DNA from: a phage
Reading direction: 5' to 3' (one strand)
Length of the DNA: 64,000 nt
Sequence record: PZ509022.1
Part shown: in pieces, positions 448-44,650 of the stretch
Layout: the number at the start of each line of letters is the position of its first letter
Position numbering within the stretch: position 1 is the stretch's first letter
The notes under the pieces: generated by a model
The model's database searches: none
What the model was told of the DNA's origin: nothing
What the model saw: the letters and a program-made list of their open reading frames with translations, nothing else
Program-made: the position numbers and the translations under genes

Positions 448-684
448 TCAAATGCAAGTAGTAATTACTCCAGTAGTGCTTATGCAGGTATTACCCATTT
501 GCACACCTAAAGATCCATTTGTATTCACATGAAGATTATCATCAATTTTAACTGATATTTTACCATTAGTGTGAATAACAGTGCTAGATTCAATCACAGG
601 TTGAGTATCATTTTCAACACTAACAAATGGAACTGCTGCTAATGCAACTAAACAAACTGCTAAGCATCCCATAACAATTTTCAT
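448..684 (-). CDS. small secreted or membrane protein
   Basis: ORF track 448..741 trimmed to internal Met (MKIVMGCLAVCLVALAAVPF signal-like); upstream residues are read-through of the early promoter repeat. Confidence 0.45.
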   Translation of the reverse strand: MKIVMGCLAVCLVALAAVPFVSVENDTQPVIESSTVIHTNGKISVKIDDNLHVNTNGSLGVQMGNTCISTTGVITTCI

Positions 685-720
685 TTTATTCTCCAAATCC
701 GTATCAGTAGTTGATAGTTG

Positions 721-751
721 TATAGTACCATGGAAGAACATTCTTGTAAAC
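721..751 (-). promoter_or_regulatory. T4-type early promoter (rc GTTTAC, 18 nt, TACTAT)
   Basis: plus tatagtacc...tgtaaac; same architecture repeated at 12 other sites. Confidence 0.55.
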
Positions 752-828
752 AGTTTTGTGAAAATTTTTTTAGGGAATTCTAAATGTCCAGAATCATCTG
801 TTTTTCATAAGTATAGATTTATATTACT

Positions 829-15763: not shown

Positions 15764-16234
15764 TTAATCATGTTTCCACACCCCATCGGTATTTGACCAA
15801 AGCCGCTGATTATCTGATCCTCGCCACAGCTTTTTAGTCGGAAGATTTTTCTCATACTTCCCATCAATAATAACATCAACATATTTAAGCATTTCTAGCT
15901 GTTTAACATCTTCAAACTTATATCCTGTCCACAACCAAATGCTTTTATTGGGATAAAGATTTTTTACTGTTTGAACAATGCAATGAATAACATCTCGGTT
16001 ATCAGGATAGAGAGGGTCACCTCCAGTTATAGTCAATCCTTCTATATAATCATTATTCAAACATTCAATTAATTGTTCTAGTGTTTCACCAGTGAATGGA
16101 ATACCATTTCTAGCATTCCATGTTGATTTATTATAACACCCTTCGCATTTATGCAAACAACCTGTAACGAAAAGAACGACCCTGCAACCAGGGCCATTCA
16201 CAAAATCGCAAGGATAAAATCTATCATAATTCAT
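15764..16234 (-). CDS. nrdG: anaerobic ribonucleotide reductase activating protein NrdG (radical SAM)
   Basis: 156 aa; CLHKCEGC cluster motif. Confidence 0.9.
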   Translation of the reverse strand: MNYDRFYPCDFVNGPGCRVVLFVTGCLHKCEGCYNKSTWNARNGIPFTGETLEQLIECLNNDYIEGLTITGGDPLYPDNRDVIHCIVQTVKNLYPNKSIWLWTGYKFEDVKQLEMLKYVDVIIDGKYEKNLPTKKLWRGSDNQRLWSNTDGVWKHD

Positions 16235-18048
16235 TGGTGTTTAACCCTATGCATGATTTCTTTATTTTTACCGAGATTAAATCCGCGTTCGTTCGGATTT
16301 CCCAAATAACCACATGTTCTTCTTATTGTGTTCATCTTTTTAGGATCAGTTTCTCCACAAATAGAACAAACAAATCCGTTTTCAGTAGGAGTCATTTCAT
16401 GGGTACTTCCGCATGTAAAACATTTATCTACTGGCATATTAACACCAAAATAATCTAAATGTTGTGCAGCATAATCCCATACGGCCTCAAGGCCTTTTAA
16501 GTTATTTTTCATATCAGGAAGTTCAACATAAGAAATGTGACCACCTGTCGCAATGAAATGATATGGCGCTTCACGAGAAATCTTTTCAAACGGAGTAATA
16601 TTTTCTTCTACTGAAACATGGAAACTATTAGTGTACCAGCCTTTATCAGTAACATCCTTTACACTTCCATATTTCTCAGTATCAAGTTTACAGAAGCGAT
16701 AGCACAGGTTTTCAGCAGGAGTAGAATACAAGCTAAAAGCAAAACCAGTTCTTTCAGTCCACTGCTTAAGACGAGCATTCATTTTAGTTAAAATTTCTTG
16801 TCCAATATCACGACCGACAAGAATATTCAATTCGTGAATACCAATGTATCCTAGGGACACTGAACTTCTACCGTTTTTAAATAACTCAATTATGTCGTCA
16901 TCAGGTTTAAGACGAACCCCGAATGCACCTTCTTGGTAAAGAATAGGAGCAACAGTAGCTTTAACTCCTTTTAAGGAACTAATTCTACACATCAAAGCTT
17001 CAAAACATAAATCCATTCGTTCATTAAATAGCTCAACAAATTTCTGTTCATTGAATTGTGTTCCAATATAAGAATCTAACGCGATGCGAGGAAGATTCAG
17101 TGTTACAACACCAAGATTATTACGTCCATCAAGAATTTCATTACCAGTCGAATCTTTCCATACGCTCAAGAAACTACGGCAACCCATTGGAGAAACAGGA
17201 ACAGATGAACCAGTGATAGCTTTATTGTTCTTAGCTGAAATAATATCAGGATACATCCTTTTGCTTGCACACTCTAGAGCAAGCTGCTTAATATCATAGT
17301 TCGGATCGTCTTTGTAAAGATTAACGCCTTCTTCGACGAACATAACAAGCTTAGGGAAAATAGGAGTTATCCCATCACGACCGAGACCTTTAATACGATT
17401 TTTCAGAATTGCTTTCTGAATCATTCGTTCAGTCCAGTCAGTTCCCGTACCAAATGTAATTGTTACAAAAGGCGTTTGTCCGTTTGAACTAAAGAGAGTA
17501 TTTACTTCATATTCATAAGCTTGGAATGCATCGTATACGTCTTTTTCTGTTTTAGATTGAGCATAATTCAACGCATCAGCGATTTGCCATTTTTCTGCAT
17601 CCTCAATATGTTTTGCATATGTGCGTTTAACATAAGGAGAAAGTACTTTATCTACATTAGCAAAAGTCGTTCCGCCGTATTGGTGAGAAGCAACCTGTGC
17701 AGTAATTTGTGCCATAATTGCAGTAGCAACGCCAATTGATTTAGGAGTTTCAATTTGAGCATTGCCTAATTTAAATCCATTCTCAAGCATTCCTTTTAAA
17801 TCTACTAAACAGCAATTAGTAAAAGGCAATGATATACTGTAATCTAAATCGTGAAAATGAATTAATCCGACATTATGAGCATTTACAATATGGCTCGGAA
17901 GAATACTACAAGCGATATGTTTAGAAACAATACCGGCCATTAAATCTCTTTTTGTTGGAAAGACACGAGAATCTTTGTTGGCATTTTCGGTATTTAATTC
18001 TTTATCTTTATTTGAAATAAAATTTAAAACATCTTTCTCTAAAGACAT
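16231..18048 (-). CDS. nrdD: anaerobic ribonucleoside-triphosphate reductase NrdD, uninterrupted (605 aa)
   Basis: 605 aa single ORF; C-terminal zinc ribbon and glycyl radical region. Confidence 0.95.
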   Translation of the reverse strand: MSLEKDVLNFISNKDKELNTENANKDSRVFPTKRDLMAGIVSKHIACSILPSHIVNAHNVGLIHFHDLDYSISLPFTNCCLVDLKGMLENGFKLGNAQIETPKSIGVATAIMAQITAQVASHQYGGTTFANVDKVLSPYVKRTYAKHIEDAEKWQIADALNYAQSKTEKDVYDAFQAYEYEVNTLFSSNGQTPFVTITFGTGTDWTERMIQKAILKNRIKGLGRDGITPIFPKLVMFVEEGVNLYKDDPNYDIKQLALECASKRMYPDIISAKNNKAITGSSVPVSPMGCRSFLSVWKDSTGNEILDGRNNLGVVTLNLPRIALDSYIGTQFNEQKFVELFNERMDLCFEALMCRISSLKGVKATVAPILYQEGAFGVRLKPDDDIIELFKNGRSSVSLGYIGIHELNILVGRDIGQEILTKMNARLKQWTERTGFAFSLYSTPAENLCYRFCKLDTEKYGSVKDVTDKGWYTNSFHVSVEENITPFEKISREAPYHFIATGGHISYVELPDMKNNLKGLEAVWDYAAQHLDYFGVNMPVDKCFTCGSTHEMTPTENGFVCSICGETDPKKMNTIRRTCGYLGNPNERGFNLGKNKEIMHRVKHQ

Positions 18049-18860
18049 AATTCTAATTTATCCTTTTGAAATTCTTCGTCTAAATATGGGTTCCAACCCA
18101 TTTTAAACCTTTTGATGAAATTATCAATTCTAAATTTCGGTAAATTTAACTCCGCAAAAATAGATGATTTACTTTTAAAATCTGGACCTAAATAATCATA
18201 TAAAATTTCTGCGTATTTTAACCATAATATATAAGTACCAGATTTAATTGCTCTAGGAGTTTTCCAAGGTTTTACGCCGTACATCGGATTTCCACTTCCT
18301 TTATGCCTGATAGAAGATGAAATTCCAATTTTAATTTTAGCTTCCTTTGTGTGCGAAAATCCATGATGTGGATTTTCTTTCCAGTATTTTTTAGAAGCTT
18401 CTGATATTTTCTTTCTGGCTAAATTAGTATGATGCTTTCCATAAAATCCATGATTTTTACCTTTATTACGATTTCTTTTAATCATGGTTATTGATTGCTT
18501 TTCTCTAGTTTCTTTAGAAGGGGAAACACCGTACGTTGTAAATTGACCATTAGCATATGCTAAATTAAAATACTCTTTATTCCATATATCTTTTTCTATA
18601 TTCTTTTGAAATTCAGCTTCAATGCTAGTTATTTGTTCATCTCCGACTAATTGAAAATATAATATTTCAACTTTCGGTGTTTCTTTCAACAGAGCTTTTT
18701 GAAATTCGGAAGATGACGAAGACGAATAATAAAATTTACCATTTTTATCAATAATATTCGTTCCGTCAAAAGTGCAATTGGTTTTACTTCCAATATAATA
18801 ATATGGCGGGGTTTTAGCATTAATTCTACTAATAAATGATAGTTTATATACTACATTCAT
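18039..18860 (-). CDS. Seg-like GIY-YIG homing endonuclease candidate with NUMOD3-like repeats (273 aa)
   Basis: N-terminal VYKLSFI...YYYIGSKTN; repeats GKNHGFYGKHHTNLARKKISEA and NPHHGFSHTKEAKIKIG. Confidence 0.6.
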   Translation of the reverse strand: MNVVYKLSFISRINAKTPPYYYIGSKTNCTFDGTNIIDKNGKFYYSSSSSSEFQKALLKETPKVEILYFQLVGDEQITSIEAEFQKNIEKDIWNKEYFNLAYANGQFTTYGVSPSKETREKQSITMIKRNRNKGKNHGFYGKHHTNLARKKISEASKKYWKENPHHGFSHTKEAKIKIGISSSIRHKGSGNPMYGVKPWKTPRAIKSGTYILWLKYAEILYDYLGPDFKSKSSIFAELNLPKFRIDNFIKRFKMGWNPYLDEEFQKDKLELCL

Positions 18861-35704: not shown

Positions 35705-36166
35705 TCATTGAGTTTTAATTACTGCTTTAGAAGCCTTTCCTGGTAAACGACGACTGTTGATAATTGCCATCCTACATTGAAGTGACGGGTCTTTGAACTT
35801 CGCGTTAGGTTTACAAACTGTAAATCCAAGCCAAAGATTTCCATCTGTGATTTCTAAACGTCCAGGACGATATTCAACCCCATCAATAAAATCCTCGTCA
35901 ATGTCAGGACGCGGAGGCATACTCAGGAATTCATTAACTTCTAAAACATGGTCTTTTATTTTATGGAATAATTCAAAAACATATGTCTCATCAATCTCCC
36001 GTTGAATTGCACGATCAAGAAGATGTTGAGAATATTTTAGATGAAACGATGAGACTCCTGCTGCTTTTGATGCCTCACGAATCTCATTGTTAATTTGACG
36101 AAACTCCGACTCAAAGTGACGACGAAGCTTATTTCGACGGATAAAAACTTCTGTATTGATAGTCAT
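35705..36166 (-). CDS. regB: RegB endoribonuclease (153 aa)
   Basis: 153 aa at the T4 regB position with early promoter upstream. Confidence 0.7.
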   Translation of the reverse strand: MTINTEVFIRRNKLRRHFESEFRQINNEIREASKAAGVSSFHLKYSQHLLDRAIQREIDETYVFELFHKIKDHVLEVNEFLSMPPRPDIDEDFIDGVEYRPGRLEITDGNLWLGFTVCKPNAKFKDPSLQCRMAIINSRRLPGKASKAVIKTQ

Positions 36167-36193
36167 GTTATTCTCCTCTTAACTGATAGAAAA

Positions 36194-36223
36194 ATTATAC
36201 CACAGTCAAGAGGAAAAGTAAAC
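36194..36223 (-). promoter_or_regulatory. T4-type early promoter (rc GTTTAC, 18 nt, TGG TATAAT)
   Basis: plus attataccac ... gtaaac. Confidence 0.55.
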
Positions 36224-36225
36224 AG

Positions 36226-36504
36226 TTATTCTTTAAATCTAATCAATTTATTCATAGACTTTGAAACTTCTGCACGAACCTCATGTAGATTTTTGAGCTG
36301 TTCAAGACGCTGCTCATAGTAAGCAATTTCATCTTCTTCGAGACAGTCCTGTGAATCTTCTTTAAGATAACGTGCATAGTCCTGGAAAGCGTTACGAACT
36401 ACTTCCTGGAAGTCATCAAGACTTTGAATTTTCTTAGGAGCAACAGATACACGACGAGGGGCAGTATAATACTCATAACCAAACCCTGCGCTTAATTGAG
36501 CCAT
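36226..36504 (-). CDS. hypothetical protein
   Basis: ORF 36226..36546 trimmed to MAQLSAG. Confidence 0.4.
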
Positions 36505-36770
36505 TAGTATTTTTCCTCTGGTTGGAACACTGCGCGACAAGCCCACATACTGGCTTCTTTGAGTTTCATTTTAGCAATAGTTAACTGATCGAGGCTTTCG
36601 GCGTAATTCTTCGCGAGTTCATCATCTTCACAGCTATCAAATGCTTCCCAGAATTCATCATATAAAGCATCAAAGATAAGCCCTAAACGAACTTCAGCAT
36701 CTTTGATAGCATTCACTTTACTGATTTTATCGTCAGTATGTGGTTTATAACCTTTAATGTCTTCAATCAT
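36504..36770 (-). CDS. hypothetical acidic protein (88 aa)
   Basis: ORF track. Confidence 0.45.
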
Positions 36771-36984
36771 ATTTTACTTCCTCACCTGTTCCCAAATCAT
36801 ATTCAACTAAACGAATAGGTTCATGAATGCCATATCCTTGAACAGAAATTTCTGTCGTAGGATAAATTCCATTAATATCACCCATGTTCCATGCTTCGTT
36901 AAATTGCTGTTCGCCTGAATTACTAAACCACTCGGCGAAAGCATTTAGCACATCTTCAGAACCTTCAATAATTATCTTTGCCAT
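36763..36984 (-). CDS. hypothetical protein (73 aa)
   Basis: ORF track. Confidence 0.45.
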   Translation of the reverse strand: MAKIIIEGSEDVLNAFAEWFSNSGEQQFNEAWNMGDINGIYPTTEISVQGYGIHEPIRLVEYDLGTGEEVKYD

Positions 36985-37346
36985 TACAAACTCTCGGTGA
37001 AGGTACGAGCGATAACGTCGCGCTGCTGTTCCGGAGTCAGAGAGTTAAAGCGAACTGCATAACCGGATACACGGATGGTCAGCTGCGGATATTTTTCCGG
37101 ATGCTTAACTGCATCTTCCAGAGTTTCACGACGCAGAACGTTAACGTTCAGGTGTTGACCACCTTCAATTTTAACTGTAGGCTGTTGCTCAATTTCAATT
37201 TCACGGGCATGCAAACCATAGAAAATTTCTGGGTCTACAAAAGAGTCCTCTTTAAAGGTTTTAGAGACAATAATTCGTGCTTGAATACCATCTTCAAAAT
37301 AAATAGTACCTTTATGTGTGCCTTCAAGAATTTGATATGCTTTCAT
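36984..37346 (-). CDS. autonomous glycyl-radical cofactor, GrcA/YfiD-like (120 aa)
   Basis: C-terminal [19 protein letters not shown] matches the RVSGY glycyl-radical motif. Confidence 0.7.
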
Positions 37347-37352
37347 ATAACC

Positions 37353-37682
37353 TCAATTAAAAAATAAATTTATCCAAGATTGTTCTTTAATTAAAAATGG
37401 CTCAGAATCATATGCCATTAAACTCTGTGTGATTAGTCCTTTAAAAGGCCCATCAATAAATTCCATGGTAAAATATGGAATTTTATTCATTAGCCGTGCA
37501 TTAGGAGCCGTGCACAAAACTCTGCATCCTTTGAATACGCCTTTTTGTAATTTGTATTGCTTGGGATAAAATTCGCTCAAAATGTTATTTTTTGCCAAAA
37601 TTTCAAAATGATTCACCAATTTATTTTTAATAGTTTTTGGCGAAAAATAAAGATATTCGAAAAGCTGAGTGTCTGTCATCAT
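37353..37682 (-). CDS. hypothetical protein
   Basis: ORF 37353..37733 trimmed to internal Met after upstream stop. Confidence 0.35.
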   Translation of the reverse strand: MMTDTQLFEYLYFSPKTIKNKLVNHFEILAKNNILSEFYPKQYKLQKGVFKGCRVLCTAPNARLMNKIPYFTMEFIDGPFKGLITQSLMAYDSEPFLIKEQSWINLFFN

Positions 37683-38218
37683 TGCATTCCGATTACGAAA
37701 AACTGTGGACGAGTAATACCACCAATGCAACATTTAATATTACAGCAGCAGTGTACAGTGTCAATATGGACACTATAAATCTTATCCATATCAGGAGATT
37801 TGACAGGCTCATCAATTATATACAAAATTCGCGAAAGCGATAAACCTCTGAACTTGCTTCCTTTATTACCAATAAAACTGCGCACAGAATCAGTAAATAA
37901 ACGAAAACGTATATCATCATTAGAATAACGCGAAAATTCCTTTTTAATATTATCTGCGGAAATTTTAGCGTAAGCTGAAGTATTAGAAAGAACAATAACT
38001 GTTCCACCGTCATACAACCAATTAGCGGCAAAATTAGTTACTGCAGTTGATTTACCAGATTGACGCCCACCATCTAGTCGAAGTGTACAATACTGTTTAA
38101 GTAAGTCTTCAAATGGCGGGATATATTCGTTTTTACAAATTTCTTCTACTCTAGCATCAGAATGGTGTGTAAAAGCATTCATCAGGGATAGATAAGGACC
38201 AGTTAAAAATGTTCTCAT
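37679..38218 (-). CDS. small P-loop protein (GGRQSGKST)
   Basis: ORF 37679..38266 trimmed; Walker A-like and hhhhDE motifs. Confidence 0.4.
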   Translation of the reverse strand: MRTFLTGPYLSLMNAFTHHSDARVEEICKNEYIPPFEDLLKQYCTLRLDGGRQSGKSTAVTNFAANWLYDGGTVIVLSNTSAYAKISADNIKKEFSRYSNDDIRFRLFTDSVRSFIGNKGSKFRGLSLSRILYIIDEPVKSPDMDKIYSVHIDTVHCCCNIKCCIGGITRPQFFVIGMQ

Positions 38219-38363
38219 TTTGTTCTCTCTAGGTTTGGGCCATTCCATGGCGCATGAATTGTCCATTTCTGTATTTACCCATTACCGCACTTGGGCTCGA
38301 CCTTATTACAGGTTGGCGGGAATCCCTCACAGAATCATGAGGTCCAGGTTATTCCCATGTTAT

Positions 38364-38780
38364 TTAAATGTAAATATTTTTGCCGTAATACTTATACCAG
38401 TGTGGCTTCATTAAAATTTTTTCATCGAGTCGTTGTTGACTCAACTTAATAGCTGATTTGCATGGATTATAATCATTTTTCCATTCTACTGGAATATCGC
38501 TGATGTCAGGAACTTCAGTATCTTTTATACTGAACCCGCGTTTTAAGCATTCCGTTATAATGTCCGATTGACGCTTTCGCAAAAATTCTAACTTATCGTA
38601 AAAGAAAGTAACATGACCAGAACCTAAAATAAATTTAGAAGATATTTTAAAATCTTTAACACGCTTACCATTTGCCACATGCTTACGAACTATACCAAAA
38701 ACACGCGGCAATTCACGGTATTCTGCGATTAAATGTTGATCAGCAAGTTCAGATACTAAAGTCAAATTAATACGAGTCAT
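38364..38780 (-). CDS. denV: endonuclease V, pyrimidine-dimer DNA glycosylase (138 aa)
   Basis: 138 aa, N-terminal [17 protein letters not shown] as in T4 DenV. Confidence 0.9.
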
Positions 38781-38803
38781 TTTATCCCTCCAAGTAACTG
38801 TGA

Positions 38804-38839: not shown

Positions 38840-39370
<531 letters not shown>

Positions 39371-44471: not shown

Positions 44472-44546
44472 TGGCGGACGTGATAGGATTCGAACCTATA
44501 ACCAATCGCTTAACAGGCGATCGCTCTGCCATTGAGCTACACATCC
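44472..44546 (-). tRNA. tRNA-Asn (anticodon GUU)
   Basis: hand-folded; AC stem ATCGC/GCGAT, loop CTGTTAA. Confidence 0.75.
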
Positions 44547-44550
44547 AAAT

Positions 44551-44637
44551 TGGTGGGGAGTGATGGAGTCGAACCACCCGAGTCGCAATGACAATGGATT
44601 TACAGTCCACACCGCTACCTCTACGGGATAACTCCCC
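44551..44637 (-). tRNA. tRNA-Tyr (anticodon GUA), class II with long variable arm
   Basis: hand-folded; loop CTGTAAA; 15-nt variable arm. Confidence 0.7.
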
Positions 44638-44650
44638 TTAATTCTTAATT

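Follow-up and report, generated by a model that had tools for sequence, protein, structure and literature searches.

The closest described relatives of the phage gene analysed here encode the Escherichia coli protein GrcA (YfiD) and the product of the bacteriophage T4 gene vs.6, known as Y06I. According to Andorfer et al. (2021, PMC8683613), who cite Wagner et al. (2001, BBRC 285:456), just two 'spare part' proteins have been validated, Y06I and YfiD; the pyruvate formate-lyase (PFL) activating enzyme, PFL-AE, installs a glycyl radical on both, and the activated proteins form a complex with oxygen-cleaved PFL and restore PFL activity, in vitro in the case of Y06I. The radical of GrcA G102 is passed to C419 of PflB (PMC12338860). 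The RefSeq name of T4 vs.6 is 'autonomous glycyl radical cofactor GrcA', and the same label is found on the ORF in related phage records. Both the GrcA identity and the PFL-rescue role are already known; for T4, they were established in 2001. The novelty implied by a preliminary description of the locus is therefore not sustained, because the gene has been both annotated and biochemically characterised in T4-like phages; vs.6 is routinely annotated in them, and a spare glycyl radical domain in itself adds little. The origin of the gene and its metabolic setting are considered below.

The DNA studied, referred to as the window, is a 64,000-nt stretch of phage PZ509022.1, a Tequatrovirus (T4-like phage), and the features discussed are collected in Table 1. 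The product of the gene in question shares 118 of 120 residues with T4 Vs.6/Y06I (NP_049730), and 6 of the 363 nucleotides of the gene differ. With a probability of about 0.9, as judged from sequence comparison, the window gene is the Tequatrovirus orthologue of T4 vs.6 and encodes a phage autonomous glycyl radical cofactor; it is the identity to a characterised protein that settles this assignment.

Table 1. Positions of vs.6, its parts and other features of the 64,000-nt window.
Feature	Position	Strand	Basis or remarks
nrdG, radical-SAM activase of NrdD	15764..16234	minus	Pfam Fer4_12 E = 4e-48, Radical_SAM E = 3e-7
nrdD, class III anaerobic ribonucleotide reductase, 605 aa, no intron	16231..18048	minus	Pfam NRDD E = 6e-171, Gly_radical E = 1e-25
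273-aa ORF with NUMOD3 motif	18039..18860	minus	between nrdD and gene 49 (endonuclease VII); overlaps nrdD start by 10 nt
vs.4 orthologue, 88 aa	36504..36770	minus	second gene downstream of vs.6; 'Acb2/Tad1 hairpin domain' (Pfam PF24729), E = 3.3e-18
vs.6/Y06I orthologue (phage GrcA)	36984..37346	minus	ATG-initiated ORF, 120 codons
vs.6 3' half, codons 60-120 and stop, host-grcA-derived	36984..37168	minus	DNA identity and composition
Perfect-identity run with E. coli grcA, 169 nt	37000..37168	minus	DNA alignment
Gly95 codon GGT, predicted radical site	37062..37064	minus	HMMER alignments to 1CM5 and 6OWR; gene position from DNA alignment
vs.6 5' half, codons 1-59, phage-type N-terminal region	37169..37346	minus	composition; no DNA similarity to bacterial grcA
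Shine-Dalgarno GAGG	37351..37354	minus	4 nt upstream of vs.6 ATG; overlaps vs.7 stop codon; read from sequence
vs.8 orthologue, 195-aa ORF	37679..38266	minus	Walker-A-like GGRQSGKST motif; just upstream of vs.7 and vs.6
denV	38364..38780		directly adjoins e
Lysozyme gene e	38840..39334		
Part of tRNA cluster	~44486..44643		84-85% identical to plasmid tRNA-Tyr/Thr/Asn cluster

The stop codon of vs.7 lies 6 nt upstream of vs.6, and the stop codon of vs.6 overlaps the start codon of vs.5 (TAATG at 36982..36986), which indicates that vs.6 is a member of a tightly packed string of co-oriented genes. The order of genes, vs.8-vs.7-vs.6-vs.5-vs.4-vs.3-regB, is the same as in T4 and in phage DalCa; in the T4 genome (NC_000866), vs.6 is likewise located between vs.7 and vs.5 in the denV-regB block. 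Over positions 36000-38800, the window shows 100% identity to Escherichia phage UTI-E2, and many Tequatrovirus genomes reach at least 98% there. The UTI-E2 annotation was unusable as a map of the whole window, being out of register elsewhere (29,864 position-by-position mismatches), so nrdD and nrdG were located directly in the window. A scan for promoters and terminators around vs.6 gave consensus matches no commoner than in shuffled sequence, and no claim is consequently made about the transcription unit of vs.6.

Some neighbouring genes deserve mention in their own right. The hairpin domain PF24729 found in the vs.4 orthologue is the fold of the sponges with which phages sequester cyclic nucleotides and so evade CBASS and Thoeris defence; metabolic genes and candidate anti-defence genes thus stand side by side among the small vs genes. 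The vs.8 orthologue weakly resembles the ATPase part of the terminase large subunit (phrog_2, E = 2.4e-6) and has no Pfam match; judging by its motif, it may represent a P-loop NTPase not yet characterised. In T4, denV and e are separated by the internal-protein genes ipII and ipIII; these are missing in the window, as they are in phage DalCa.

The preliminary description had recognised a 120-aa protein with a glycyl radical signature at its end and had proposed a stand-alone cofactor of the GrcA/YfiD type, and the searches clearly bear out both points. Gly_radical (PF01228) is the sole Pfam domain of the protein and matches it with an E-value of 2.5e-18 (67 bits, cut-off 22.2), a relationship far beyond chance. 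The radical motif comprises the 17 residues 92-108 (18 if counted from residue 91), with 12 further residues to the stop codon. The top match in the PDB is E. coli GrcA as solved by NMR (6OWR, E = 9e-42), with which the last 60 residues of the phage protein are 100% identical; the next is the C-terminus of E. coli PFL (1CM5, 2PFL and others), where residues 697-759 align with phage residues 58-120 (E = 5e-26), the alignment including a 13-residue motif and Gly734. HMMER alignments to 1CM5 and 6OWR place Gly95 of the phage protein opposite Gly734 of PFL and Gly102 of GrcA; the conserved glycine, on which the preliminary description had made its reading depend, is present.

Among the NCBIfam models, the protein fits best to TIGR04365 'autonomous glycyl radical cofactor GrcA' (IPR011140), which covers residues 20-120 with a score of 154.9 bits, below the equivalog cut-off of 170; the shortfall is explained by the divergent and shorter N-terminal half, and NCBI still names the T4 and DalCa proteins GrcA. 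The protein also belongs to PHROG 1209 (phrog_1209, E = 5.7e-63, residues 1-120), has the size expected for GrcA/YfiD (a small stand-alone protein of about 14 kDa, essentially one glycyl radical domain) and carries the PFL-type RVSGY motif. With 120 aa only, it is not a full-length glycyl radical enzyme of the PFL/TdcE kind, which has a barrel of ~750-800 aa and a catalytic Cys: matches to PFL-family models cover just the last 55-65 model positions, and both the 10-stranded barrel and the catalytic Cys418/Cys419 of PflB are missing. The sequence is that of a cofactor module rather than an enzyme.

Matches to the gene were found in 1,507 records of the phage collection, T5-like phages included, and in 863 of them the match extends over at least 80% of the gene length. 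A full-length intact ORF is conserved in Tequatro-, Mosig-, Slopek-, Pseudoteven- and Winklervirus (Straboviridae) and in T5-like phages, and the N-terminal half is homologous, at the protein level, to the corresponding part of vs.6 products from other Straboviridae. Many phage records mislabel the small radical domain as 'pyruvate formate-lyase', '2-ketobutyrate formate-lyase' or 'acetyltransferase', and PHROG 1209 is labelled 'unknown function'; the function of the protein being known, these labels are annotation errors or gaps.

Comparison with bacterial genomes divides the gene into two dissimilar parts. The last 185 nt (gene nt 179-363) share 97.3% identity with the grcA of every one of the 5,426 complete E. 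coli genomes, and upstream of gene nt 179 there is no DNA similarity to E. coli grcA and weak amino acid similarity. The composition switches at the same place: GC content is 34% and GC3 20% in the 5' half (window average GC 35%), as opposed to 49% and 45%, respectively, in the 3' half. A megablast search of the whole window against the E. coli collection found the vs.6 tract as the single match to the E. coli chromosome. The other matches of that search fall in the phage tRNA cluster; the corresponding tRNA-Tyr/Thr/Asn cluster resides on plasmids of ~97-110 kb, present in 255 E. coli genomes, with no chromosomal match. These plasmids resemble phage-plasmids.

An identity matrix was computed over a 171-nt core of the 3' half of vs.6/grcA. 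In this core, identity to E. coli is 98.8% for the window, 99.4% for T4 and 97.7% for Mosigvirus p000v, and E. coli itself is 92.4% identical to Citrobacter amalonaticus, 87.7% to K. pneumoniae and 83.0% to Salmonella. The gene of Klebsiella phage Phi_KR8 shares the phage-type 5' half; in its 3' half (578..763), the core has its nearest counterpart in grcA of K. pneumoniae (93.6%, versus 87.7% to E. coli). Slopekvirus Miro and Pseudotevenvirus JC03 have 96.5-100% of the same core residues, with DNA that is ~80-84% identical to grcA of either E. coli or K. pneumoniae, 28-30 synonymous codon differences per 61 codons and longest perfect runs of 14-20 nt; against E. coli grcA, these runs in the 171-nt core measure 14-17 nt, compared with 169 nt for the window. 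Between the window and the Mosigvirus genes, the 3' half contains no non-synonymous differences and 5-8 codons with synonymous changes.

Two explanations of the host-like DNA were considered and ruled out. Constraint on the protein does not account for it, since Miro and JC03 combine 96.5-100% residue identity with 80-84% DNA identity; co-divergence of phage and host does not either, since phage-host identities (98.8% and 93.6%) exceed the identity between the hosts (87.7%).

The comparisons presented here show a gene whose radical-domain half has recently been overwritten by, or acquired from, the chromosomal grcA of E. coli via recombination, and whose N-terminal half is old phage sequence. 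As phages of the Miro/JC03 type keep 96-100% of the residues with ~80-84% DNA identity, the near-identity seen in the window reflects recent host-to-phage transfer or gene conversion; the core identities show that the E. coli phages received the tract from an Escherichia-type allele once the enterobacterial genera had split. That the core of Phi_KR8 is closest to the grcA of its own host speaks for two or more such transfers or gene conversions from host to phage, independent of each other. Since the full-length gene is common to Straboviridae genera, conversion of a pre-existing phage gene is likelier than first acquisition. A more general scheme, in which the radical half of phage grcA is repeatedly overwritten by the allele of the current host through gene conversion across the ~185-nt core, can be put forward tentatively and is, on these alignments, rather less probable than its opposite; Miro and JC03 would then represent unconverted lineages. 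If true, repeated overwriting would be a clean natural case of a virulent phage with modified DNA that continues to exchange homologous sequence with the chromosome of its host. No description of the vs.6/grcA mosaic or of gene conversion was found in the searchable literature, and older T4 papers may well have noted it. The mosaic marks, with a date and a direction, the recombination of a lytic T-even phage with the chromosome of E. coli, and it has a parallel in a Klebsiella phage; a host-derived tract that tracks the host is a modest evolutionary observation.

The mechanism reported for T4 Y06I and E. coli YfiD/GrcA can be carried over to the window protein by 98% and 100% identity, respectively, the latter over the radical domain. 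When infection takes place at low oxygen, PflA, the radical-SAM activase of host PFL, would abstract a hydrogen from Gly95; where host PflB has been cleaved by O2 at Gly734, the radical-bearing 14-kDa protein would dock in the place of the lost C-terminal radical domain and hand the radical to Cys419 of PflB. The rescue of oxygen-damaged host PFL, suggested in the preliminary description, agrees with the in vitro finding for the 98%-identical T4 orthologue (Wagner et al. 2001, as cited in PMC8683613).

The phage might benefit by keeping fermentative production of ATP and acetyl-CoA going, and possibly by maintaining the supply of formate as a reductant for its own class III ribonucleotide reductase (RNR), NrdD. 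Most of the class III RNRs characterised use formate as their reductant, and T4 NrdD has been proposed to possess a formate site (PMC4493059). The connection between vs.6 and nrdD/nrdG would then be metabolic, not physical: PFL makes the formate that the class III RNR consumes. The literature searched yielded no in vivo phenotype for vs.6 mutants, so the benefit to the phage, and the link from formate to NrdD in particular, is something we infer; the PFL-formate-NrdD link is a testable idea with value beyond the known function.

A direct partnership with the anaerobic RNR, in which NrdG would install the radical and the protein would rescue oxygen-cleaved NrdD or act as a radical reservoir, is very improbable. 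It has in its favour that nrdD and nrdG are encoded in the same 64-kb window, that NrdD is also an oxygen-sensitive glycyl radical enzyme, and that an early comparative paper speculated about a role of vs.6 in nucleotide metabolism (PMC1524935). The preliminary description was right in that both genes are present in the window, and its statement that vs.6 lies near them went too far: they are ~19 kb away, in a separate gene block, with dozens of intervening genes. Activation by NrdG, which it also raised, finds no support. The radical domain is of the PFL type and identical to host GrcA over 60 aa; the similarity of the vs.6 protein to phage NrdD is not significant (BLASTP E = 2.4), and its motif IRVSGYAV differs from the C-terminal RRTCGYLG of NrdD; the published biochemistry (PMC8683613, citing Wagner et al. 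2001) consists of activation by PFL-AE and complementation of PFL. Neither a radical-domain relationship nor genomic linkage thus marks vs.6 as an accessory component of NrdD/NrdG, and grcA of T5-like phages has no adjacent nrdD within 1.5 kb on each side.

The ORF with the NUMOD3 motif next to nrdD is present in only 50 phage records, one of which annotates it as a homing endonuclease of the SegG type, and it is missing at the matching site in UTI-E2. It represents a free-standing mobile endonuclease adjoining an intron-less nrdD.

The protein might instead manipulate the host, as a decoy that titrates PflA, or occupies PflB/TdcE, and redirects or stops host fermentation. Exact mimicry of the host radical domain would suit such a competitor too, and the phage-specific N-terminal half, unlike that of bacterial GrcA, could bring another activity. 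The T4 orthologue nevertheless restores PFL in vitro rather than inhibiting it (PMC8683613, citing Wagner et al. 2001), and the protein retains the catalytic Gly with all its flanking residues, which a pure decoy does not need; the chance that it acts in this manner is slight. Least credible of all is a neutral passenger, host DNA that recombination brought into the phage and that has no selected function there: the 3' half is indeed almost pure host DNA and the one tract of the window that matches the E. coli chromosome, but the ORF is kept intact at full length across many Straboviridae genera and T5-like phages, its phage-type N-terminal half is conserved as well, the changes in the 3' half relative to the Mosigvirus genes are exclusively synonymous, and the gene is translationally packed into an operon.

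A cofactor that rescues host PFL, encoded by a phage gene with a host-derived radical half, accordingly remains the preferred reading, and the protein can be set beside its described counterparts in these terms. E. coli GrcA, like the vs.6 protein, is a stand-alone protein of ~14 kDa, and the two part in their N-terminal halves: that of the phage is weakly similar, lacks ~15 N-terminal residues and contains an 8-residue insertion. T5-like and other phages also possess grcA-like genes that encode small stand-alone radical domains of the PFL type; their products have ~51-54% overall amino acid identity to the window protein, the DNA of the 3' half is ~71-76% identical, the N-terminal halves are different and the host-identical DNA tract is missing. 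T4 vs.6 stands closest, and both it and the window gene have the E. coli-like 3' half. The two proteins differ by the substitutions Q54P and R73H alone; at residue 73, the window phage keeps the host-type Arg, and T4 has His, whereas three synonymous changes near the 3' end of the window gene (gene nt 348, 351 and 354) are not present in T4.
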